Source: an uncultured Candidatus Saccharibacteria bacterium (GTDB taxonomy: Bacteria > Patescibacteriota > Minisyncoccia > Phycocordibacterales > CSBR16-119). From it: 64,000 nucleotides of DNA. Both the position numbers and the translations under genes were made by a program. Positions 47,178-58,010 of the stretch are shown here, in pieces (position 1 is the stretch's first letter; every line of letters starts with the position of its first letter). The stretch is taken from assembly GCA_964589975.1 (NCBI GenBank), contig CAZPVH010000002.1, forward strand, positions 4,217-68,216. The letters are read 5' to 3'. The notes below the pieces were generated by a model, which made no database searches, had not been told where the DNA came from, and worked only from the letters and a program-made list of their open reading frames with translations.

Positions 47178-47261
47178 ATAGATACTTTACTTATAAAACA
47201 GCGTATTTACAAGAATTTGCTTTATTCCTTGAGGTGCGTAAACTATGTGAAAACAAGAGTC

Positions 47262-47546
47262 ATGGAACGAGACCAAATACTATCGCTCCTCAACACATAC
47301 GAAGGAGGACTGAAGGTCTTGGGCGCTACGCCCATACGTTTTGACAAGGAGGCAAAAATGAATACCAACAAGAAAGGCCGGCGTAAGGATGTACTGAATC
47401 ACATCTGCTACATGGTAGGTGAGATACGGATATTCATAGAGAACAACAAAATGGAAAAGGCAAATCGCTGGCTAGGTTTCGTCCAGGCGTGCATATGGAA
47501 TCTGGGATACGCCACCCTGGGAGAACTTCGAACCGACAACAGATGA
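47262..47546 (+). CDS. hypothetical protein
   Basis: Start chosen at MERDQIL, giving 94 aa. A GGGCCC-TTCGC-GGGCCC terminator follows at 47550-47573. Confidence 0.35.
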   Translation: MERDQILSLLNTYEGGLKVLGATPIRFDKEAKMNTNKKGRRKDVLNHICYMVGEIRIFIENNKMEKANRWLGFVQACIWNLGYATLGELRTDNR

Positions 47547-47573
47547 AAAGGGCCCTTCGCGGGCCCTTTCTGC

Positions 47574-47894
47574 TTAGTCGTACATCTCAGCGGCTTTGGC
47601 TTTCATCCGCTCGATGAGTTCCGGATCTTCGATCTTCGTGAACCGCGGGAAAGTTTTACCTTCCTTCGTTACGTCTTCCGCGAACATTGAAAACGGCCGG
47701 ATATCCCAAAGCTTTCCAGCTTGATAGACCTTGGCGCTTTCATAAAGCGGCCGATAGACAACGAACGATGCGTCGTCAAAATCTTCTATCTCCGTATGTT
47801 TGCCAATATTCAGAACCTCGTAGGCGTAATTGAATTCGCCGTTCGCCGGATCGTGCTTGTAGTGGTAAAAGAACCCCTTCTCTATTTTTTTCAT
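47574..47894 (-). CDS. DUF1653-like protein
   Basis: 106 aa. The pattern YHYKHDPANGEFNYAYEVL...VVYRPLY resembles the DUF1653 family. Confidence 0.4.
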   Translation of the reverse strand: MKKIEKGFFYHYKHDPANGEFNYAYEVLNIGKHTEIEDFDDASFVVYRPLYESAKVYQAGKLWDIRPFSMFAEDVTKEGKTFPRFTKIEDPELIERMKAKAAEMYD

Positions 47895-48036
47895 ATTGGG
47901 ATTATATTTCCTGGCGAGGACAAGCGCAAGGCAGAACCTTGAATGGCATTCGAGCGAAGGAAATAATGAGTGAGAATAACGAGACCCTTATACCAAATGA
48001 AACTGCCCCGGCGCGATGCGCCGGGGCAGTAGGTTC

Positions 48037-48711
48037 TTAGAGGTCTTTGAAGTCCCAACCCCACCAGACTCCGAAGTAACGCTCTTCTTGGCTCCAAAGA
48101 TCCCAAGCATAAGCTCGGACAAAGAAGCTTTTTCCGATCTCCGCGCCGAGCGCAGGACCGATATCCAGATCATCGAGCTTCCCGGAAATTCGTATCTGTT
48201 CCGCAAGACCTACCCGAAGCCACTTGTTCACTTTGTAAGCTGCGTCAGTGAAGTTGTAAGTGATGTTCGTTGTATTGTGGGTCAACGCGAAACTGTGTTG
48301 GTTGATCGAATAGATCTTCCAGCGCTCCCTGTCGAGCGTAGTGTGCGACGTGAAGCCGATAAGAGTCCGAGCCCTGTAACCATATTCCCACATTGTGTTA
48401 TAGGTGGTTACACCAAATGCCGGAGCGAACGAGAGACCGAGTTTCTTGCCGATATTCCACCGGTGGCCCCAGTAGAAGGAATTTGCTCGAGTTTGTTCGA
48501 AGTTGTAGCGAAATTCGAACAGATCATCGTTTCGATACACCAGACCTCGGAAGGCCACGACAGGATTCTCGAGCTCAGCTCGGTCCCACATCCACATGGA
48601 TGCATTGGCGGACCAATCGCTTGGGTTGCCTACGATCTTCGCCTGGTCATTCTGCTGAGCAGAGACATTGGCGCACAGGAGGACCACTGAAAAGGACAGT
48701 TGTAAGCGCAT
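48037..48711 (-). CDS. secreted W/Y/R/N-rich beta-strand-rich protein, hypothetical
   Basis: 224 aa with a signal peptide (MRLQLSFSVVLLCANVSAQQ) and an alternating aromatic/polar pattern reminiscent of a beta-barrel or beta-sandwich. GC is elevated. Confidence 0.45.
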   Translation of the reverse strand: MRLQLSFSVVLLCANVSAQQNDQAKIVGNPSDWSANASMWMWDRAELENPVVAFRGLVYRNDDLFEFRYNFEQTRANSFYWGHRWNIGKKLGLSFAPAFGVTTYNTMWEYGYRARTLIGFTSHTTLDRERWKIYSINQHSFALTHNTTNITYNFTDAAYKVNKWLRVGLAEQIRISGKLDDLDIGPALGAEIGKSFFVRAYAWDLWSQEERYFGVWWGWDFKDL

Positions 48712-48794
48712 GTTTGTTCTTTTGTTTTAAACTAACATACTTATCTATAATTGTCAACCAAAGAAAAACGCCCCCGATTTACGGGGGCGCTTTT

Positions 48795-50459
48795 TCAATC
48801 CTTGAAAGGAACTGTATCCTCCTCTTTTCTGACATGCTCTTTGGAACTCTCTTGTTCCATATAAGCTTGCCAACTAGAAGGATGTGCTTCGTTGCCTTCG
48901 AGATGTATACAGACCTGACGGTCAGCAGCATCAATGAGAGCAATTTCGGCTTTGCCGAACGTGATGATCTGCAGGCTATCGCCCGACTTGGCCTGGATAT
49001 TCGTCTTCCAGTACAAGTGGCGGTCACCGTTCACATCACGAACTACAGGGGTCATCTCTGTAGGCTCTTGGCGGTGCCAATCATATTCAGGCATGTAATC
49101 CCGAACTTTGCTTGGTATCGCTGTCGGACCCATCAGTTTCTCTGGCGACGTCTTGTGGTCAAAGTAGTAGACGTGTGAGTCGTCGCCTTTGACAAAGAGA
49201 CTGAGCGAAAGAAGGCTCTTGTCTTTGCCGTACGGTTCGAGCGGGATGTAGTGACATAAGCCATCTTGGGCCTTGCCACCTGACACTTCGCTCAGTACGA
49301 AGTACTCCTCGAAAGGAAGTATCGTATACGAGTTCGGCGAGTTAGGGACTCTGACATCTCCTGCGTGGTTACCCCACGAGGGAGCCCAGAAGCCTTTGTA
49401 GAACCGGAACGTTTGTGCCGCGTAGAGCGCCACTTGGTCCGGAACCAGAAGTTGTCCCGTGAGGAAGTCGTGATCTGTAACCTTATCGGCCGTGATCACT
49501 TCTCCTCCGCCAAAAAGAACTTTTTCAAAGTAGGGCGCCTTGCCCTGCTTGAACACAACTACTCCTCCATACTCAGGCATCGGGAACAGAATTCCCGTCC
49601 ACTTGATGAGCGGCACGACTTGGACGAAATCGCCATTGTCGTCCGGTATATAGATAGAGTAGTTTACCGGTTCATACCGGAAGTACTGCCAGAAGCCGAG
49701 CTTCTTGATGGCAGCGGTCTTCACGTTGCTCGACAGGATCAGATTCTCCCCGAAGGAGAACTCGACCTTTGCCACCTCCTTGTTCTTTTCATCGAACTTC
49801 GGAGACAGCGTATTGCCGGGCGTCAGGAAAACCTGTTCGACGTGACCGAACAAGTATTGCCAGATCTTGGTGCTCGACGGCTCTACGGCCATCGTAAACC
49901 AGTACTCGGCGTCTTGTCCCAAGCCGTACCGCCTGCGGGCCGCTTCGTTGAAGCGGACCATGTGCGGCAGACTCACGTCTTTGGTATCATCCACGCTCTC
50001 CTTGTCGGCGATGCTGTGGATGCTGTACACCGCTTGTACTTTCTCGTGCGCTGTAAGCGGCATATCCGTGAGCTCAACTGAGCGAATGCGCAGATGATTC
50101 CGGTAAAGCGAGACGTACTCGTAAGACATCGCGCCGGCCGTGTAAACGACAACAGCTGCGAACGTCCATATGATCCCTGTCCATGTCTTCTTCCACCATG
50201 CGCCTTCCCGTTTCTTCACCCGCTTCACGACGAAGTAGATGGTTGAGACGAGGAGGATTGCAAGGGGAGTTTTGAGGACAATGAACAGTACGAGCGGATG
50301 GTACAGACCTCGGAGGGTGAAGAGCGCGAAGAGGAGGAGGAAGGCAAGCAAGACCCAGATGGTCTTGCCCACCACTCCGTAATTTCGCCACTTGAACCAC
50401 CCCTGGATATTCCTTCCCCATCGTGTGAGGAAGAAACCTTTCCTTGCTGTGCTTTCCAA
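48795..50459 (-). CDS. large membrane protein, hypothetical
   Basis: 554 aa with ~4 N-terminal TM helices and a large soluble domain. GC-rich block. Confidence 0.5.
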   Translation of the reverse strand: MESTARKGFFLTRWGRNIQGWFKWRNYGVVGKTIWVLLAFLLLFALFTLRGLYHPLVLFIVLKTPLAILLVSTIYFVVKRVKKREGAWWKKTWTGIIWTFAAVVVYTAGAMSYEYVSLYRNHLRIRSVELTDMPLTAHEKVQAVYSIHSIADKESVDDTKDVSLPHMVRFNEAARRRYGLGQDAEYWFTMAVEPSSTKIWQYLFGHVEQVFLTPGNTLSPKFDEKNKEVAKVEFSFGENLILSSNVKTAAIKKLGFWQYFRYEPVNYSIYIPDDNGDFVQVVPLIKWTGILFPMPEYGGVVVFKQGKAPYFEKVLFGGGEVITADKVTDHDFLTGQLLVPDQVALYAAQTFRFYKGFWAPSWGNHAGDVRVPNSPNSYTILPFEEYFVLSEVSGGKAQDGLCHYIPLEPYGKDKSLLSLSLFVKGDDSHVYYFDHKTSPEKLMGPTAIPSKVRDYMPEYDWHRQEPTEMTPVVRDVNGDRHLYWKTNIQAKSGDSLQIITFGKAEIALIDAADRQVCIHLEGNEAHPSSWQAYMEQESSKEHVRKEEDTVPFKD

Positions 50460-50479
50460 TGTGCTGCTTTGGTTTTTTG

Positions 50480-51061
50480 TTACCGTTGGGTGTACTTACT
50501 GATGTCGTCGCGAGGATCGGTGTCCGGCTTCACGGGGCCGCTTGGCGGCGGCGTGATGATCGGCTCCTTCTTTTCCTCGCGAGCTCCATTTCCGCGGACA
50601 CCTCCACCAACATTGTCGGTTTCAGCGAAGTGCCTTTCTGCTTCTTCTTTCAGCTTGGTTCCCACTTCCTCCGCCTTCTTCTGAACCTTGGGCCAGATAT
50701 AGTGCGTATAGGTAGCAAGTACCACGATACCGACATTGAACATGAACGGCCAGAACCCTTCAAAGGGACTGACATATTCGGGGTTCTTTGGATCGGACGA
50801 AACCGTGAGCAGTTCCCACACCAGCGTAAAGATGATGGTGGCACCCAAAGACACGATGAACCTGATGAGCAAGTTCTGGCGGAATACGATTCCGCGCGGC
50901 CCTTTTTCATCCTCTTTCTTCCAGCCGAGACGGCCGAAGATGCTCATTACCGAAAGTGTCAGGCCATTCGGCGCAACGCGTCGGCGCGAGTCAAGGAAGG
51001 CCAGGAACATGCAGCCCAGGAAAAGGGCTGCGATCTTGAAGAGAAAACCGATGAACTCCAT
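50480..51061 (-). CDS. membrane protein, hypothetical
   Basis: Start chosen at MEFIGFLF, giving 193 aa. It has 3-4 TM helices and a charged Pro-rich C-terminus. Confidence 0.4.
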   Translation of the reverse strand: MEFIGFLFKIAALFLGCMFLAFLDSRRRVAPNGLTLSVMSIFGRLGWKKEDEKGPRGIVFRQNLLIRFIVSLGATIIFTLVWELLTVSSDPKNPEYVSPFEGFWPFMFNVGIVVLATYTHYIWPKVQKKAEEVGTKLKEEAERHFAETDNVGGGVRGNGAREEKKEPIITPPPSGPVKPDTDPRDDISKYTQR

Positions 51062-51084
51062 GTGTTGTGGTTTTTGGTTTTGGT

Positions 51085-52386
51085 TTACTGCGAACTTGCA
51101 TCTTTCCTGTCGATGTATGTCGGCAGGTAATGTTTTTTGAGGTGTGCAACAGCCCACTCCTGCTTGATCTTCGCCCACTTCTGATAGTGAGCGAAGAATT
51201 CAGAACGATCATGAGCGTACATGCGCAGGATGTCGAATGACGTCCGGCGCATCATCATCTGCCACAGGAGCTTCCGCAAGTTTTGCGGAAATTCCGGATT
51301 GGGGCGGATCAGCAGTTCCCTTTCCTTCTTGAGGATTCGGGTTGTGCTGGTATCTTCAAGGCGTTTGATCTTCCGAAGAAGCCTATCTGCCGTGAAGTAT
51401 GTCTTCTTTAGAAGCCCCAGGTCGGAAAGGCGTTTTACCACCATCTTCCTTTTTGGACCTTCGAAGTAAGACAGGTCTGCGGTTTCATCAGCGCTATCGA
51501 CGATGGCTTCGAGGAGCAGCAGATCCTTGATCCGCTGCAACCTGGAAACTCCTTCTTCGGTCGCTAACTCATCCATGTAGATATCGTAGACACCGTGCTC
51601 TTCCAGATAGCTCCACAGATGTGGATCACTGATCGCATAGGAGCGATATCCGCTCGGCGTCACCTTTTGCTCGTTGTGCGCAGTCTCGCTCGCATGGACG
51701 ATTAGAGGGTCCATGTCACTGACATTCCTGAGGACAAAAACGCCTCCGAATGCCTGCGTAAAGAAAGACTGCACTTCAAGAAAGGGAATGGCTGGTACAT
51801 CGAACTGCCGGAATCTGAGATCACCGTGCTCTTTCGAGGTCCGGATAATCTCGCTCCGCAGCGCTGTGTCAGACCACGCCCTGTCTTCTTCGTAATACTG
51901 CCTGATCAGCGCTGCCTGCTCCCGCTTCGCTTCTGGGAGATTAACGGTGCTTCTGATCCGCAGCTCGTACGCGTCGATCATCATGAGGTCTTCTGGACTC
52001 TCATAATGTTCGATATTCTCGTCCATCTCAACCCATATTCCTCCCTCTGTTAGAAGATCGGAGATCTGGGCTTCGGCGTCCGTGAATATCTTTTCCATCA
52101 TGCGCCGGTCAAATGAGTGCACCGGAAAATAGACCGGCAAACCCTTTTGATCCAAGCTCACGAGTATCGCGTACGTATTGGCAAGCCCGTGCGAAAGATA
52201 GAAGTTATCCTTCTTCTCATCCGCAATTTCGGGACTCCATCCCATCGCATCGATTGAGAATCGCTCAAGCGATGTTGGCGCAAGACCGATGGCTTTCAGA
52301 CAGTCGTTGTAACGACCGACAAGAAGACCACCGCGTATCGGCAAAAGTCCTTTGCCGAACAATCCTGCTTCCTGTAGTCTATTCAT
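51085..52386 (-). CDS. hypothetical protein
   Basis: Start chosen at MNRLQEAG, giving 433 aa of soluble helical protein. Abuts the AAA ATPase gene. Confidence 0.45.
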   Translation of the reverse strand: MNRLQEAGLFGKGLLPIRGGLLVGRYNDCLKAIGLAPTSLERFSIDAMGWSPEIADEKKDNFYLSHGLANTYAILVSLDQKGLPVYFPVHSFDRRMMEKIFTDAEAQISDLLTEGGIWVEMDENIEHYESPEDLMMIDAYELRIRSTVNLPEAKREQAALIRQYYEEDRAWSDTALRSEIIRTSKEHGDLRFRQFDVPAIPFLEVQSFFTQAFGGVFVLRNVSDMDPLIVHASETAHNEQKVTPSGYRSYAISDPHLWSYLEEHGVYDIYMDELATEEGVSRLQRIKDLLLLEAIVDSADETADLSYFEGPKRKMVVKRLSDLGLLKKTYFTADRLLRKIKRLEDTSTTRILKKERELLIRPNPEFPQNLRKLLWQMMMRRTSFDILRMYAHDRSEFFAHYQKWAKIKQEWAVAHLKKHYLPTYIDRKDASSQ

Positions 52387-52446
52387 GTGTGTTGTGCGTT
52401 TTTTGCCCGGGCAGCCGAATTGCCGCCCGGGACCAAGTGAAAGCAA

Positions 52447-54438
52447 TTAGCCCTTCATGACCGCCTCACGCCTTTCCGAAAGCTGCTTGTCGGCTTCTTG
52501 TCGGATAAGGTGTTCTTCGATCACTTGGTCGACGCGCCGCTGGCGCGCCGTGTTCTTGATCTGGATCAGGGTGTTGAGATGCCGAAGCATCTCTTCTGTA
52601 AGCACCTGCGCAAAATTGCTCTTGCCCAAGGCTCCTTTCCTGACTTCCAGAATCATCTCCACCTTCTTGTCATAGCTGCCACAGAGGAAGAACTCTTCGG
52701 GCTTCTCGAACCACTCCTTCGGCATATCGTAGTCGTTCAGACGGAAATCAACCGCCTTTTGCACGTTTCGCTTCTCGCGCGACGTTACGAATGGATATGC
52801 TTTTTGAGCGTGGTAGAAGAGCTCTGCATGGAAGGCGAAGTCTTTCTCCGGATTGAGATTCCTCCCGACAATCGCATCGTACATATCCCGGAGACCGGTA
52901 TCTGTGATGTCTTTGTAGGAGAATTTCTCTTGGCTGAAGCTCACGAAGCTGTCTTGCGTCGACATGAACTTGTAGCCTTCTGGAGCATCGAGATTGATGA
53001 TGCCTCCTGTCTCTCGGTTGCCGTAGTTCGACCACCAGAGATAGTTCTGATCGAGCCAGTCTTCCTTCGTCGTTGCTCCTGCGATCAGTTCTCGGCTTTG
53101 GATGCGCGAGAGAATCGCCGGATCAACTTGCTCCAGAAGATTGGTCATCAGATATATTAGCGAGTTGCCTCGCCTCATCGCGCTCGCGCCCTCGGTCGCT
53201 CTCAAGAACTCTCCAATGAATTCCCTCACTCCGGAGGAAACTCCTTGCATCGTCCTGTCCTGCATGACGTTTTCAGCGTCATCGATGGGCGCGTATGTAA
53301 TCACGTTCGGATTGTTCACTGCTTTGAACCACTCGATCGCCCGTTCAGCCGATCCGCCCTGGAACGTCGAAATGATATTCCCAGGCAGCGGAGAGAACTG
53401 GAACGGGATCTTGATGATCTCGCAGTATTCCTTGATCAATCCGGCTTTTGCAGCGACGAGCATCGATTTGCCAGTTCCCGGAGGGCCGTAGCCCGCCGAA
53501 ATGTCCGGAAAACCGCCAAGCCTTTTGTCCATGAACGGATTCAGCTTGCGGTCGAAATCGTATGCGACCAGCCGTTGCGCCAGCCTCTTACACTGGAGTT
53601 TGACCCTGTGGTTACCGACGATCTCGCCGAATGATACCGGTTTGATCTCAAGCGTTTGGATGGCTCGATACAAATTCGTCTCGAAGCCATCGATCACAAA
53701 GTCTTCATGCTCCAGCTTGTGCATGTACTTGCCGAAGGATTCCAATTGCTGGTCTCCTTCTGACCTGAACTTCAGGTCGTCCATAAGGGCTTGGAAGTAA
53801 AGCAAGGTGAACTTCTGAAGCGTCTGCTCGTCGCTTACGGTGCCTGACTTTTCAAGGTACAAGGCGTAGTAATAAAGCGAGCAGCGTATAGCTTCATCGA
53901 GGCTCATCAAGCCGACTTCCGGCACTCCCGAGTACTGCATATTGATCTTGGCCAAGTCCTCTTCGCCGCCTTGTGCTATCTCCCATGCGATGTAATACGC
54001 TGATGAGAATAGGAACACGATGGCTTGCGACGATTTCTTGGCATGCATTTCTGCCTTCTGCTGCGGAGAGATGTTCCCCGTCGCATTGCGGCCGATCAGC
54101 GTGTCGAGACCGGACGTCTTGGCGAATTGCTCCGCCATGTGATATCCGATCTGGTAACCGCGCTTCAAGATATTCGCTATCCTGTTATGAGGCTGACCGA
54201 GGATCACGGGATTGCCCGAGAGTTCGACAAGCTTCCTAACCACGGATCTCGTATCATTGTTCGCTCCAGCAATTGCCGGATTGGCCATGATCGAGGCGAA
54301 ATCACCGTACGCGTCCTTATCCTTCGCGGACATCTCTTTCGGCTTCCATGTCACGTTCTTCAGGAACCCTATGACAAGGGTTTCATGCTTCTTGATGTCG
54401 GACTCCTTGATCGGGAGTACGTTCTTGGCTTTTTGCAT
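52447..54438 (-). CDS. divergent AAA-family ATPase with a ~300-aa N-terminal domain
   Basis: Walker A GYGPPGTGKSML. The Walker B and SRH regions are degenerate (ITYAPIDDAE, DPAILSRIQSRELI). Its 5' end overlaps the upstream ORF by 56 nt, so the true start may be internal. Confidence 0.6.
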   Translation of the reverse strand: MQKAKNVLPIKESDIKKHETLVIGFLKNVTWKPKEMSAKDKDAYGDFASIMANPAIAGANNDTRSVVRKLVELSGNPVILGQPHNRIANILKRGYQIGYHMAEQFAKTSGLDTLIGRNATGNISPQQKAEMHAKKSSQAIVFLFSSAYYIAWEIAQGGEEDLAKINMQYSGVPEVGLMSLDEAIRCSLYYYALYLEKSGTVSDEQTLQKFTLLYFQALMDDLKFRSEGDQQLESFGKYMHKLEHEDFVIDGFETNLYRAIQTLEIKPVSFGEIVGNHRVKLQCKRLAQRLVAYDFDRKLNPFMDKRLGGFPDISAGYGPPGTGKSMLVAAKAGLIKEYCEIIKIPFQFSPLPGNIISTFQGGSAERAIEWFKAVNNPNVITYAPIDDAENVMQDRTMQGVSSGVREFIGEFLRATEGASAMRRGNSLIYLMTNLLEQVDPAILSRIQSRELIAGATTKEDWLDQNYLWWSNYGNRETGGIINLDAPEGYKFMSTQDSFVSFSQEKFSYKDITDTGLRDMYDAIVGRNLNPEKDFAFHAELFYHAQKAYPFVTSREKRNVQKAVDFRLNDYDMPKEWFEKPEEFFLCGSYDKKVEMILEVRKGALGKSNFAQVLTEEMLRHLNTLIQIKNTARQRRVDQVIEEHLIRQEADKQLSERREAVMKG

Positions 54439-55555
54439 TGGTTCCGATGCTTATGGGTTTTACTGAGTGAATCGGGAATGACAGCCGGCGCGCAAAATCC
54501 TTGTGCTCGGCTGTAACTTTCTGAGCGAGGTGATGACTGCAGATCAGAAAATTCTTCACTGCGCTCACTCCCCGCTCGCTGCATTCGAAATCCGATGTCT
54601 CAACGTGGAATTGTTGCACGATCTTATCGGTCTTCAGGAAGCTTCCTGTTAGGTCAGCTTCTCCTGCCGAGACCAGCATCTCCACGGTAAGCGGCACACC
54701 GAACTCTCCTTTATCCATTGCTGGATCGCGGATGAGGTTGGTGAGCACATGGTCGTCATTCGAATATTCACCGAGGATCGGTCCGATCTCGATGCGCTTC
54801 AACAGCTTGGGACTAACGGCTTTGATCTTGCGGTCGATCCCTCGACCGATCAAAACCAGCTCCCGAGCCAAGAACGACTCATCTTTTACCGCCTGTTCGA
54901 ACAGTCGCCGCGCGGCCTCGTCTTCACGAAGGTCGGGAGCTGACTTCTGTTGGTCGAACATCATCAGATAGATAAATGGGCGGCTGTCTTCGGAATCGAA
55001 GATCGCCCAGTGGTAAAGGAATTGCCGGATATCGGCGTTCTCGCCGATTAAGGCAAGGTCGCCACGGTTGTAGCTTCTGAAGAAAGGCTGTTCCGAGAGT
55101 GCCTTGAAATAAAGGCGCTCTCCCATCACCTGCAAAAGATCTTTTGGATCCTCGTGCTTGGTCATGAGGCGGTTCAAGATCTCACCCTTGAGATCCTGCT
55201 CGCTCGGAAAGCTCTTCAGTCGCTCTTTTGCCTGCATCAGGTCTGCGTCCAGCTTCGTGAATTCGAGGCTATTCGGATAACCCGAGAAGGTCGTATCAAT
55301 ACGCATCGCCGAATCGGCGTCGTAGAGATACTTGTAACGCAGAATGACAATGGTGTTCAGAAAGAGCCTGAGATAATGCTCGATGAGCTTCACCTCATTC
55401 GCCTCCCCGCCATGCGTAGTGCTTTGGTAGAAAGACATGACTCTCTTGAAGACAGAGTTCAAGTACTGGAAGTAGTGGGCGTTCTGATCGGACTTAAGAT
55501 CCACCATATTGAGATGATCATTTTCCGTGTCAGTAAGAAGCTTGAGTTTTCTCAT
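54383..55555 (-). CDS. hypothetical protein
   Basis: 390-aa ORF in the GC-rich block, in the same operon-like array. Confidence 0.45.
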   Translation of the reverse strand: MRKLKLLTDTENDHLNMVDLKSDQNAHYFQYLNSVFKRVMSFYQSTTHGGEANEVKLIEHYLRLFLNTIVILRYKYLYDADSAMRIDTTFSGYPNSLEFTKLDADLMQAKERLKSFPSEQDLKGEILNRLMTKHEDPKDLLQVMGERLYFKALSEQPFFRSYNRGDLALIGENADIRQFLYHWAIFDSEDSRPFIYLMMFDQQKSAPDLREDEAARRLFEQAVKDESFLARELVLIGRGIDRKIKAVSPKLLKRIEIGPILGEYSNDDHVLTNLIRDPAMDKGEFGVPLTVEMLVSAGEADLTGSFLKTDKIVQQFHVETSDFECSERGVSAVKNFLICSHHLAQKVTAEHKDFARRLSFPIHSVKPISIGTNAKSQERTPDQGVRHQEA

Positions 55556-55612
55556 TGTTGAGGTTTACTGTTTGTGAAAACCCCCCGGCACATGTCCGGG
55601 GGGTCTCGCTTG

Positions 55613-57046
55613 TCAGCTGAGTACGCTGAAGCCTTCAGTGGCGGGTTTCCCGCCGCTTGGAGCTCCATCGGAACCCTCGGGCTTCTCTTCACCATTGTGC
55701 TTGTAGAACGAGGCGACGGCTTCTTCAGGATTGATGCCGTATTGCTTCATGTAGTCCTGGAAAAGTTCTTCCTCGGTTCTTATAACACCGGCCATGGCTT
55801 CGGCATAGACCTTACCTACTTGGTGTAGGTGTCTCATCCGCTCAGGATGCTTGGCAATCTGAGCGAGTCGGTCATCCTCGGAAGCTTTGGCGGCTGATGC
55901 CGTGTATTCGATGTTGAACTCATCGACTTTCCCGCCAATGTTCCTGTACATCGATGTCACCTCCTGATCCTTTTGAGCCTGCATGATGCTGACCAGCGTC
56001 TTCCACGTGACGGAGCGCTTGTCAGATGCGGCTTTCAGGGCCTGGAGGTTGGCTGCCAAGTTTGTCTTCAAGCGGGTTACCGCGTCGTACTGAAGGCTCA
56101 GTTCATTGACCGCAGCCTCATACTCCTGGTTCACTGCTCGAGCCTCTTCAAGCTTGGCTTTCGTGTCGCCGTACTGCTTCTTCAGATCTTCGACGAGCTG
56201 GTCCTGCTTCGCATAGGCTTCTGTGCCCTTCTCTGCGATCATGGCAGCAAGCTTATGACTTTCTTCTGTGACCTTGGTCATCAGATCTCCGGTCTGTTCG
56301 TTCCATTCGCGGAACTTCTTGCCCGCTTCGTCACGAAGCCTGATCGAGGATTTCTTCTTGTCGTCGATCTGCGTCAGCTGCCTCACCAGTCCCTGGACAC
56401 GCTGTCGGACGAGACCATCGATCTTGGATACCAGACCCATGTAGTGGGTCAATGATTCCTCCATCGATGCCGTCTGCAAACGCTTCCGGTAAAGTTCATC
56501 AGCCTTGGCTTCAGCATCCGCGAGTCCTTGCTCACGATCTGCCTTGGTGCGGTTCAGCTCCTGGATCAATGCTTCGGCCCTGCGAACTTTACCGCCACGA
56601 CCATTGAAGATCGAGAGGAACCAGTTATCCGAAAGCGCTTGCGCGTCGGTCAGTTGGTTATTCGCCGAAGGGATCCTTGCTTTGACCTCATCCAGGAATT
56701 GCTGGGCTTTGTCGATCAATGCCTGTTCGTCAGGATTGAGCGAAGTGAGTTTTTCAAACCCAAGCTGCACCGTATCCATGAATTGCCGAACTGCCAAGAA
56801 GACGTTGGCGAGGTCTTTTTCCTCCGACTTGAGCATCGCTTCCACCGACTTGAAGTCGGCGGTCATGATCCTCTCTCGGAGACCAGCTTTGGCATCTCCG
56901 GTCTTCGCATCCATGACCTGATCGATCACATCAGCGTAGTCTGTACCTGCCACTTGCTTGACCTTGTCCTCCATCTTCGTTTGCACATCTCCCTTCTGGA
57001 GTTCCTCCAGAAGATCGAACTGGAACGCGGGATCCTTGTCTGTCAT
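55613..57046 (-). CDS. large coiled-coil protein, TelA/KlaA-like (tentative)
   Basis: 477 aa, almost entirely heptad-rich helical with an acidic N-terminus. Length and composition resemble toxic-anion-resistance TelA family proteins. Tentative. Confidence 0.35.
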   Translation of the reverse strand: MTDKDPAFQFDLLEELQKGDVQTKMEDKVKQVAGTDYADVIDQVMDAKTGDAKAGLRERIMTADFKSVEAMLKSEEKDLANVFLAVRQFMDTVQLGFEKLTSLNPDEQALIDKAQQFLDEVKARIPSANNQLTDAQALSDNWFLSIFNGRGGKVRRAEALIQELNRTKADREQGLADAEAKADELYRKRLQTASMEESLTHYMGLVSKIDGLVRQRVQGLVRQLTQIDDKKKSSIRLRDEAGKKFREWNEQTGDLMTKVTEESHKLAAMIAEKGTEAYAKQDQLVEDLKKQYGDTKAKLEEARAVNQEYEAAVNELSLQYDAVTRLKTNLAANLQALKAASDKRSVTWKTLVSIMQAQKDQEVTSMYRNIGGKVDEFNIEYTASAAKASEDDRLAQIAKHPERMRHLHQVGKVYAEAMAGVIRTEEELFQDYMKQYGINPEEAVASFYKHNGEEKPEGSDGAPSGGKPATEGFSVLS

Positions 57047-57114
57047 TTCTGCGGTTTTTGGTTTGTTTTTCGTTTCTGCTTTAAGTTGTCAACGACCTGC
57101 GTTAACTTGAGGGT

Positions 57115-57142
57115 AATACTACACATTTCGGGTTATTTGTCA
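57115..57142 (-). promoter_or_regulatory. sigma70-type promoter (minus strand) TTGACA-N16-TAGTAT for the 57046->48037 gene array
   Basis: The reverse complement of 57115-57142 reads TTGACAAATAACCCGAAATGTGTAGTAT. A CCCCGCAC...GTGCGGGG terminator for the upstream gene lies at 57200-57232. Confidence 0.45.
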
Positions 57143-57237
57143 AGTGTTTTCAAGGCTTTTTTGCTTTTTCCTGGGAAGCCTGTAAATAAGGGCCCAAATA
57201 GCAAAAACCCCGCACTTTCGTGCGGGGTTCTTTCGGG

Positions 57238-57960
57238 TTACAGCTCACGACCCAAATTGCCATTTCTGTAGTCATCGTCGAGCTTGGTGTCATTTACCGG
57301 CTCCCCCTCGAGAAGCGTGGCTTGTTCGAGAGACGTACGATGCTTGACCTCTTCTTTCTTTTCGAGGTTATCCCAGTGCGGAACATCACCAAACCTGATG
57401 CTGTAGACCGTCATCGACATCCACTTTTCCGGGATACGATCTTCTGGCACTTTCCAACGCCCGTTGAACGGATCATCGAGCTCGGTTGCGATCATAAAAC
57501 CCATCACCGCCAGAAACACGAAGGTTCCAATGAAAAAGCATCCCACGCGAATGGAACTGAAATCGAAGAGGAAGAACATGATGGTGGTCGTAAGCGAGAT
57601 AAAGAGAAGCAATCCATGCATCAAAGGATGCGTTCTTCTGTCGCGCTCTTCGAGGAACATCAAAGCGTTCATCGTGTCGATGGCCGCGTTAATCCTCTGG
57701 TTCTGCGTCATGCATCGGTTCAGCACAAATCCCAGGATAGTGCTATAGATGATGCTTGGCATCAGTACAATCAGGTCAGACCCGAGCTCTCTTGAGCTGA
57801 TGCCTTCCGATTGCAAGTGGAATGCCTGATAGATATGGTGCTTGAAGAAGAACCAGATGGCTACAAACACGACCGAGAATATCGATGCGATTGCAAACAT
57901 CGGGAAGGACTTGCGAAGCGTGTTCGCTAGTGTATGTTTTTCCAGCTTATCTTTTTCCAT
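57238..57960 (-). CDS. membrane protein, hypothetical
   Basis: 240 aa with 4 TM helices and an acidic C-terminal tail. Confidence 0.45.
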   Translation of the reverse strand: MEKDKLEKHTLANTLRKSFPMFAIASIFSVVFVAIWFFFKHHIYQAFHLQSEGISSRELGSDLIVLMPSIIYSTILGFVLNRCMTQNQRINAAIDTMNALMFLEERDRRTHPLMHGLLLFISLTTTIMFFLFDFSSIRVGCFFIGTFVFLAVMGFMIATELDDPFNGRWKVPEDRIPEKWMSMTVYSIRFGDVPHWDNLEKKEEVKHRTSLEQATLLEGEPVNDTKLDDDYRNGNLGREL

Positions 57961-58010
57961 GAGAGGAACTTTTTCTGCATATTACCTAAAAATTCCTCTT
58001 TGTCAAACTT

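Follow-up and report, generated by a model that had tools for sequence, protein, structure and literature searches.

A horizontally acquired six-gene AAA ATPase operon in a Patescibacteria genome belongs to a widespread bacterial cassette with a candidate role in remodelling at the membrane

What are the GC-rich genes, all on the minus strand, which lie between tgt and uvrB in a 64,000-nt stretch of DNA from an uncultured Candidatus Saccharibacteria bacterium (contig CAZPVH010000002.1, positions 4,217 to 68,216; the whole stretch is called the window below), and what could they do for the cell? An earlier interpretation made from the letters alone, here called the sequence-only reading, saw eight genes around a divergent AAA ATPase and suggested an acquired island or an uncharacterised stress or defence module. 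We find that six of the genes, g2 to g7, are a single operon with its own promoter-like site and terminator, that the block is a horizontally acquired accessory island in this Patescibacteria (candidate phyla radiation, CPR) genome, and that the operon is one version of a cassette which is widespread in bacteria and described nowhere in the literature searched. The best explanation, to which we give a probability of about one half, is that the operon encodes an AAA-driven remodelling of the coiled-coil protein g2 at the membrane.

The operon spans 48764-57143 and is read in the order promoter, g2, g3, the AAA gene (g4), g5, g6, g7, terminator:

57116..57143, minus strand: promoter-like site of the cassette, TTGACA-N16-TAGTAT (10/12 matches), followed by an A-rich 5' untranslated region (UTR) of ~70 nt
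55613..57046, minus strand: g2, 477-aa coiled-coil-like protein without transmembrane (TM) segment; an [FY]DLL motif near the N-terminus and the C-terminal region are conserved
54383..55555, minus strand: g3, 390-aa cytoplasmic protein of an undescribed family, whose gene overlaps the AAA gene by 56 nt at its 3' end
52447..54438, minus strand: g4, 663-aa classical-clade AAA ATPase (PF00004) with a ~300-aa helical N-domain, which is family-specific, and a ~190-aa helical C-domain
51085..52386, minus strand: g5, 433-aa DUF6638 protein (PF20343)
50480..51061, minus strand: g6, 193-aa protein with three TM helices, N-out, and a highly charged ~77-aa cytoplasmic C-terminal tail according to positive-inside statistics
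48795..50459, minus strand: g7, 554-aa protein, N-in, with three TM helices followed by a ~430-aa strongly conserved domain predicted to lie outside the membrane
48764..48794, minus strand: intrinsic terminator closing the operon directly after g7, with a 13-bp stem and a T-run

All eight minus-strand open reading frames (ORFs) of the sequence-only reading were recovered with the same coordinates, but the unit of eight genes that it had proposed shrinks to six, since g1 and g8 at the two ends have transcription signals of their own. The promoter, earlier placed at 57115-57142, is borne out at 57143-57116, and in the relative L173, which carries the same island, the -35 and -10 hexamers and the UTR are kept base for base up to the g2 ATG. 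It should be noted that promoter-like matches in the region are not above chance overall (11 found, 8.1 +/- 2.6 expected from shuffles). The terminator has a dG of -23.7 kcal/mol (z -5.5), and 0 of 200 shuffles fold as well. Two Rfam candidates, Leu_leader (30 bits) and ctRNA_p42d (25.7 bits), both of which need 50 bits, were rejected; they coincide with terminator hairpins at 57151-57233 and 48757-48794 and are most likely due to chance.

The 56-nt overlap of the AAA gene with its upstream neighbour g3 was confirmed, and a programmed frameshift or an internal start in the AAA gene was checked and rejected. The overlap needs no frameshift because the g3 of the window has a ~20-residue non-conserved C-terminal tail and the alignment of the AAA protein with 26 homologues begins at its first residue. 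For g5 the ATG at 52386 (433 aa) is the most likely start; the ORF runs to 52446 and the database gene call starts 8 codons further in. The start of g6 is an internal ATG at 51061 (193 aa, MEFIG...), and this ATG is conserved in L173 together with its upstream spacer. All cassette ORFs are full length relative to their families.

The first indication that the block was acquired is its composition. The GC content is 0.50-0.54 at 48-57 kb compared with ~0.46 in the rest of the window (1-kb windows). GC at third codon positions (GC3) is 0.61-0.69 in g1-g8, with z-scores of +1.9 to +3.1, and 0.48 +/- 0.066 in the 38 other window genes, where the host maximum is 0.609. In tetranucleotide usage the windows at 48-56 kb have a distance of ~26 from the remaining sequence, about double the 11-18 found elsewhere. 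The upward shift in GC described earlier is confirmed, and the island is GC-elevated in both lineages that carry it, the window and L173.

The second indication comes from relatives. The host falls within the Patescibacteria by its UvrB, whose named relatives are labelled 'Patescibacteria group', 'Candidatus Paceibacterota' and 'Pacebacteria'. None of the genes g1-g8 was found in 80 metagenomic loci with a relative of tgt (59-78% identity), and in 40 of these uvrB lies 0 to ~6 kb downstream of tgt without the cassette. Four close relatives were examined at the tgt-uvrB junction. Three of them (L170, L171 and L172, with UvrB 94, 91 and 87% identical) have the order mreB-mreC-tgt-(one small gene)-uvrB-uvrA and no cassette; in the fourth (L173/L174, UvrB 90% identical) the island occupies this very site with its gene order unchanged. 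Within the host lineage the block is therefore found in one close relative only and not in conserved synteny, and the composition together with the absence from the 80 tgt loci and from three of the four closest relatives supports the acquired island of the sequence-only reading.

The extent of the inserted DNA can be estimated from the small genes at the junction. A homologue of g8 (36% identity, E=2e-36) stands at the same tgt-uvrB position in L170, and the small gene at the L171 junction is a homologue of orf106 (DUF1653). Since both relatives are free of the cassette, g8 and orf106 are resident, and the inserted DNA is therefore g1 plus the cassette, ~48.7-58.0 kb:

48712..58010, between resident g8/orf106/uvrB and tgt: inserted DNA, approximate extent; relatives lack g1-g7
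57238..57960, minus strand: g1, 240-aa protein with four TM segments, in the inserted block, a separate transcription unit outside the conserved cassette
48037..48711, minus strand: g8, 224-aa W/Y-rich protein with a signal peptide, a resident host gene with its own terminator at 48030-48002

As insertion signatures an integrase, a tRNA and flanking direct or inverted repeats were looked for, and none was found at the island. It probably entered by homologous recombination via flanking homology, as is suggested by a block swap seen when the window is compared with L173/L174. The swapped part is the following:

51088..57046, minus strand: exchangeable core module g2-g5, replaced as a block relative to L173/L174

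Outside this module the identity to L173/L174 (tblastn) is high: 85% for tgt, 74% for g1, 86% for g7, 70% for orf106 and 90% for uvrB. Inside it the identity to L173 is 30% for g2, 30% for g3, 32% for the AAA protein and 37% for g5 (38% in a global alignment); g6 is intermediate with 47% (tblastn), or 53% for the corrected 193-aa model. The nucleotide similarity spans the g1 terminator, the promoter and the 5' UTR, breaks off at the g2 ATG, sets in again at the g5 stop codon and extends over g6 and g7 (76.9% over 2,359 nt). The window AAA protein is closer to that of an unrelated groundwater lineage (L085-087, 47%) than to that of L173, whose own closest relative is in another Pacebacteria metagenome-assembled genome (MAG; 55%). 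Because each of the two is closer to other lineages than to the other, divergence of the core in situ is excluded. Exactly four core ORFs have been exchanged as a unit between two close relatives, presumably by homologous recombination in the conserved flanks. With breakpoints at the g2 ATG and the g5 stop, g2-g5 is therefore a co-adapted module, and since g6 and g7 were kept while the core was replaced, these two tolerate very different cores. The synonymous divergence (dS) of g7 (window 48795-50459 against L173 8214-9884) is 0.88 and measurable, whereas that of uvrB against L174 is saturated; the membrane module may thus be shared more recently than the host backbones diverged.

How common is the cassette? 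A genome scan with the single AAA protein gave nothing, and a scan with the family alignment found the carriers. More than 1,500 relatives of the AAA family are in the protein database, and at least 525 species-representative genomes, spread over six phyla or more, were confirmed as carriers. Most carriers are Bacteroidota (Winogradskyella, Tenacibaculum, Maribacter, Saprospiraceae, Chitinophagales), and most are free-living; others belong to the Verrucomicrobiota, the Desulfobacterota (Desulfonema magnum), the Deinococcota (Trueperaceae) and the Patescibacteria, the latter including a complete 1.49-Mb chromosome. In 83 loci, as far as the contigs reach, g2, g3, the AAA gene, g5 and g7 are colinear and share one strand, with g2 upstream of g3 and AAA in 71, g3 in 76, g5 in 78 and g7 in 67 of them. 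The g3 and DUF6638 genes overlap or abut the AAA gene in most loci, and a 3-TM ORF of 170-190 aa between g5 and g7 is conserved in position and topology in the relatives. The genes g1, g8, tgt and uvrB never accompany the cassette in these 83 loci.

A version with four genes (g2-like, g3, AAA and DUF6638) is found in Vibrio replicons of ~0.9 Mb and in Sinorhizobium and Rhizobium, with profile E-values from 1e-22 to 1e-106; the g3 profile finds the Vibrio and Sinorhizobium neighbours with E=1e-53 to 1e-57. Trueperaceae and Desulfonema likewise have the four-gene core without g6/g7. In S. meliloti the place of g6/g7 after DUF6638 is taken by a DUF2333 membrane protein, and by hhalign g7 and the rhizobial DUF2333 protein are unrelated. 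The four-gene cytoplasmic core exists alone or with other membrane partners, and the g6/g7 pair is optional. Ten Flavobacteriaceae loci (L057, L060, L064, L069, L070, L076, L078, L079, L081 and L082) have a NUDIX hydrolase gene (~200 aa) on the same strand between AAA and DUF6638, possibly an accessory component specific to this lineage. A DUF2333 gene also adjoins a NUDIX gene in P. fluorescens (PMC5256989).

A number of individual loci have additional features. Selfish or hitchhiking genes stand between the cassette genes in Bacteroidota (L005, L008, L010, L013, L035 and others); they encode 23S-rRNA-IVP/bAvd-like four-helix proteins, IS200 transposase, GIY-YIG and T5orf172 proteins. In S. 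meliloti Ak57 (L089, CP090106.1 2662749-2682260) an endonuclease-domain gene and an ISRm16 transposase gene lie between AAA and DUF6638; this record is labelled plasmid pSymB, and with 3.7 Mb it is probably the chromosome. In Vibrio vulnificus FORC_036 (L088, NZ_CP015514.1) the four-gene version lies immediately upstream of mfd with many hypothetical genes around it. In a Flavobacteriales MAG (L002 1-21962) the neighbours of the cassette are genes for an integrase and a WYL protein, as well as an NAD-salvage-like cluster (phosphoribosyl pyrophosphate synthase, NAMPT, NUDIX/NrtR and Macro).

In the literature searched there was no mention of DUF6638 or PF20343 and no description of the cassette, also not in papers on DUF2333, on partners of the PSP proteins, on the evolution of ESCRT and on NTP-dependent conflict systems. 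Other AAA neighbourhoods, different from this cassette, are found in studies of PspA partners (PMC11237479), ESCRT evolution (PMC10936438) and NTP-dependent conflict systems (PMC7159879).

An island which is present in some and absent from other close relatives could be a new system for defence against phages or for conflict between microbes. The xenologous replacement of its core would agree with this, as such replacements are often seen where selection is diversifying. In this reading an invader would be sensed by the AAA protein together with g2, g3 and g5, and g6/g7 or a lineage-specific partner would execute an abortive or protective response. The patchy distribution across phyla, the varying membrane partner (g6/g7, DUF2333 or none) and the selfish elements and the NUDIX gene inserted within cassettes would agree with this, as would a weak match of 2 of 23 g7 homologues to the SUa-2TM effector domain (E=0.013). 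However, the phage-defence module of the sequence-only reading finds no known system to attach to: PADLOC (PADLOC-DB v2) gave no match for the window proteins except a 13.5-bit AbiEi match on the coiled coil, and nuclease, toxin, protease or NADase motifs were detected in none of the components. The 105 proteins encoded in the flanks of 27 non-redundant loci contain 128 Pfam families, none in more than six proteins and mostly housekeeping, with no defence-island signature or enrichment; the PADLOC matches there are four ABC-F ATPases which cross-match several ATPase models. Across Flavobacteriaceae genera (Winogradskyella, Subsaxibacter, Tenacibaculum) the cassette is in stable, conserved synteny, and no copy was found in phage records, IMG/VR contigs or PHROGs. 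The heterogeneous housekeeping flanks, the synteny and the absence from phage collections make a function in the cell more plausible than a typical defence island. For these reasons we favour a physiological role over defence and regard a conflict system as unlikely, although it is an alternative to be taken seriously.

The cellular function which we prefer, remodelling of g2 at the membrane, starts from the properties of the AAA protein. In Pfam g4 matches PF00004 over residues 317-450 (E=1.3e-9, 39 bits, gathering score 21.2). The canonical Walker A that had been noted, GPPGTGKS, is confirmed, with P320-S325 invariant in 27 sequences. The Walker B and the second region of homology had been called degenerate, but they are not decayed. 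In the 27-sequence family alignment the Walker B is invariantly D386-D387-A-E389-N instead of the expected hhhhDE, and an alignment to VAT puts an Asp at the position of the catalytic Glu in every family member; in the second region of homology T432-N433 (sensor-1 N433), R445 and R449 are invariant. Pore loop 1 reads S-T-[YF]-Q-G-G and is invariant in the family apart from the Y/F position. As these unusual motifs are conserved family-wide, the active site is better described as specialised than as degenerate.

The best PDB sequence matches of the AAA domain are VAT and Cdc48. An AlphaFold2 (AF2) model of g4, with a mean predicted local distance difference test (pLDDT) of 82.6, matches Cdc48/p97, spastin, Msp1, FtsH, FIGNL1, katanin and Rpt in the PDB with E ~1e-7 (Foldseek); the best of these matches are substrate-bound Cdc48, spastin, Msp1 and katanin, all of them substrate-translocating classical AAA proteins. 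In the model the N-domain (~300 aa) is a small alpha/beta unit with a long helical bundle and the C-domain (~190 aa) ends in a ~50-residue helix; profile searches found no PDB relative of either. There is no Pfam match for an MIT domain in g4 (NCBIfam CdvC gives 13 bits, cutoff 650), and a double-psi barrel, a protease domain or a TM domain is not present. Judged from sequence and model, g4 belongs to the classical clade by its AAA fold, and the residues of the nucleotide-binding site and of the pore loop are conserved together with the arginines.

The presumed substrate is g2, a long helical protein rich in A, E, K and Q. Of 69 homologues 56 have its [FY]DLL motif, compared with none of 69 control segments, and the C-terminal third is conserved. 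It has no signal peptide. A PDB profile search returned only coiled-coil noise (IFT20, keratin, SipB), and a Pfam scan of 29 family members gave scattered or compositional coiled-coil noise. Among these 29 no match to PspA_IM30 or Snf7 was found, nor was there any such PDB chain at E <= 1, and hhalign of g2 against E. coli PspA gave a probability of 1%. The sequence-only reading had compared g2 with TelA and had thought of a Ter/Tel-type (TelA/KlaA-like) stress-resistance module, in which a TelA-like coiled coil is paired with an AAA ATPase. The coiled-coil character stands. The resemblance to TelA is one of composition only; neither the window protein nor any of the 29 family members matches TelA (PF05816) at E <= 0.05. 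Furthermore the models of the Ter family (TerD and relatives) found nothing among the eight window proteins, there is no NCBIfam match, and the PDB noise mentioned above points nowhere near these families. We therefore consider a Ter/Tel-type module extremely improbable.

For the two other cytoplasmic proteins the profile searches found no structural relatives. For g3 neither a PDB profile search nor a Pfam scan of 29 members gave a PDB or a consistent Pfam match; an identity as RE_ApaLI was rejected, as the match occurs in only 1 of the 29 members. The g5 protein matches PF20343 with E=1.6e-30 (106.8 bits, gathering score 27) over profile positions 5-398 of 439, and it has no PDB match in a profile search. 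Clustered at 50% identity, the DUF6638 family makes up only 400 of the clusters in a set of 1.84 billion representatives; members of full length have ~400-475 aa, shorter matches look like fragments, and no member has an added domain. A comparison of g3 with g5 by hhalign was negative for paralogy. For the window proteins Pfam thus gave only the AAA core, DUF6638 and a sub-threshold Bestrophin-like match in g1, and NCBIfam and PHROGs added nothing. Five of the six operon products are without a characterised relative (Pfam, NCBIfam, PADLOC, PHROGs, PDB sequence and profile searches), so the earlier term uncharacterised module is appropriate.

The membrane protein g7 has exactly three N-terminal TM helices in 61 of 63 homologues, with a K+R distribution of 5.8 / 0.8 / 4.6 / 2.5. 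By the positive-inside rule across the homologues the N-terminus is inside, and the conserved C-terminal domain is therefore predicted to be outside. It has 34 columns that are invariant across phyla. With a ratio of non-synonymous to synonymous divergence (dN/dS) of 0.10 against L173, g7 is under purifying selection. A PDB profile search and a Pfam scan of 23 members gave no consistent relative.

With a core resembling substrate-threading unfoldases, a conserved pore loop, and two polytopic membrane proteins tightly linked to this core, one of them with a large conserved outward-facing domain, the operon could also be a trans-envelope export or surface-assembly machine. The AAA protein would unfold a substrate, possibly g2, and feed it to a g6/g7 conduit, and in an episymbiotic CPR host such as the Patescibacteria bacterium of the window this might serve attachment to the host. 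The membrane proteins do not fit this very well, however. Both g6 and g7 have only three TM helices, and no channel-forming family is recognised in either; the core occurs without them in several phyla; g2 has neither a signal peptide nor a TM segment; and most carriers are free-living Bacteroidota. An export machine is in our view decidedly unlikely.

The model we prefer, remodelling of g2 at the membrane, can be formulated as follows. The AAA protein would be a hexameric, substrate-threading motor, and g3 and DUF6638 would be its two dedicated, co-evolving cytoplasmic partners. Together with these the motor would engage, remodel or disassemble g2, maybe via the N-terminal DLL motif. In the six-gene version g6 with its charged cytoplasmic tail and g7 with its outward-facing domain would position the activity at the cytoplasmic membrane or couple it to this membrane, and ATP-driven remodelling inside the cell would thereby be linked to a function facing the envelope. 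The most likely physiological output is maintenance or remodelling of the envelope.

Several points weigh against this model. No direct evidence links g2 to the AAA protein as its substrate. With an Asp in place of the catalytic Walker B Glu in every member, g4 could be a slow or switch-like ATPase and not a processive unfoldase. The versions with four genes lack g6/g7, so coupling to the membrane is not essential to the core. Sequence and profile searches recognised no fold or motif in g2, g3, g5 or g7, and the AF2 model of g7, the only partner protein modelled, was unusable (pLDDT 38.7, six homologues). Finally, with its replaced block and its presence/absence polymorphism in the CPR lineage the island looks like a locus under diversifying selection, as would fit a conflict system.

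The model can be extended in a more speculative way, which we hold to be rather unlikely. The cassette would then be a phylum-spanning machine in which a Vps4/NSF-like AAA motor recycles a polymer-forming g2 at the membrane, with g3 and DUF6638 as new adaptor families and g7 as the envelope-facing output. It would be an analogue of ESCRT-III/Vps4 or SNARE/NSF built from unrelated parts, with a co-adapted core that is exchanged wholesale.

The two genes beside the operon deserve a short description. A promoter-like site at 58006-57979 precedes g1, and its terminator at ~57229-57196 is a strong hairpin with a T-run (dG -28 kcal/mol, z -5.6). The match to Bestrophin-like PF14023 reaches 30.3 bits (gathering score 32) and covers only the C-terminal third of the profile. 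Although its GC3 of 0.64 is island-like, g1 is absent from all 83 cassette loci and accompanies the island only in the window and in L173 (74% identity). At the other end g8 had been included in the module as a secreted beta-rich protein, but its homologue in the cassette-free L170 shows that it is resident and does not belong there. It has no Pfam or PDB match, and no outer-membrane beta-barrel family was matched. Its GC3 of 0.61 is high for a resident gene. Like g8, orf106 has a terminator of its own.

The tgt-uvrB junction (window 47178-58010; loci L090-L172) is a variable spot in this Patescibacteria clade, with 0 to ~6 kb of differing content in 40 relatives. The closest relatives each have a different small gene there: a g8-like 221-aa gene, DUF1653 or a 91-aa ORF. 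In the closest relative a cluster of genes resembling type IV secretion system (T4SS) pilins follows uvrA (L170 14649-20571).

If the proposed remodelling of the membrane or envelope is true, the cassette is a new class among the few AAA-driven remodelling systems known in bacteria. For CPR biology the island shows that a genome-reduced episymbiont devotes ~9 kb to an acquired AAA machine. In the swap of the core one sees a clear natural case of an operon being replaced by modules under the guidance of homology, and the genes that must co-evolve are thereby marked out.

How does the cassette compare with known systems? With the classical-clade AAA proteins (Cdc48/p97/VAT, spastin/katanin, Vps4/CdvC, Msp1, FtsH, Rpt/PAN) g4 shares a single AAA module, the fold, the Walker A, the sensor-1 Asn, the two arginines and an aromatic pore loop 1. 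It differs from them by a Walker B of D-D-A-E-N where DE is expected, in all 27 aligned members, by N- and C-domains without a PDB sequence relative and without an MIT, double-psi barrel, protease or TM domain, and by operon partners which are unrelated to any known cofactor.

The logic of the cassette, a classical AAA gene next to a helical and potentially polymer-forming protein and membrane-associated partners, is that of Vps4-ESCRT-III and PspA-Vipp1, but in sequence comparisons g2 has no similarity to PspA, Vipp1 or ESCRT-III and it is twice as long. Several distinct AAA-PspA/Snf7 neighbourhoods have been described in bacteria (PMC11237479). Their architectures, a protein with two AAA domains, an AAA protein with a beta-propeller and a Vps4 with a TPR and 6TM domain, differ from the cassette. 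In NSF-SNAP-SNARE a classical AAA motor with dedicated adaptors takes apart a coiled-coil complex at a membrane. The analogy is purely one of function, without a sequence or domain relationship to the cassette; NSF contains two AAA rings, and its N-domain is folded differently. What the Ter cluster and TelA/KlaA (PF05816) have in common with the cassette is a long helical protein in an operon with membrane proteins; they differ in that the cassette gives no TelA or TerD match and the window cassette has no ter genes nearby.

The last comparison is with DUF6638 (PF20343) itself, of which g5 is a bona fide member and which has no assigned function. Its linkage to the AAA, g3 and g2 genes, shown here, is obligatory. 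The family now has a fixed genetic context, with a specialised classical AAA protein, a coiled-coil protein and a second protein of undescribed family, and as the carriers include cultivable marine Flavobacteriaceae, Vibrio and rhizobia, this context is an entry point for experiments in tractable hosts.

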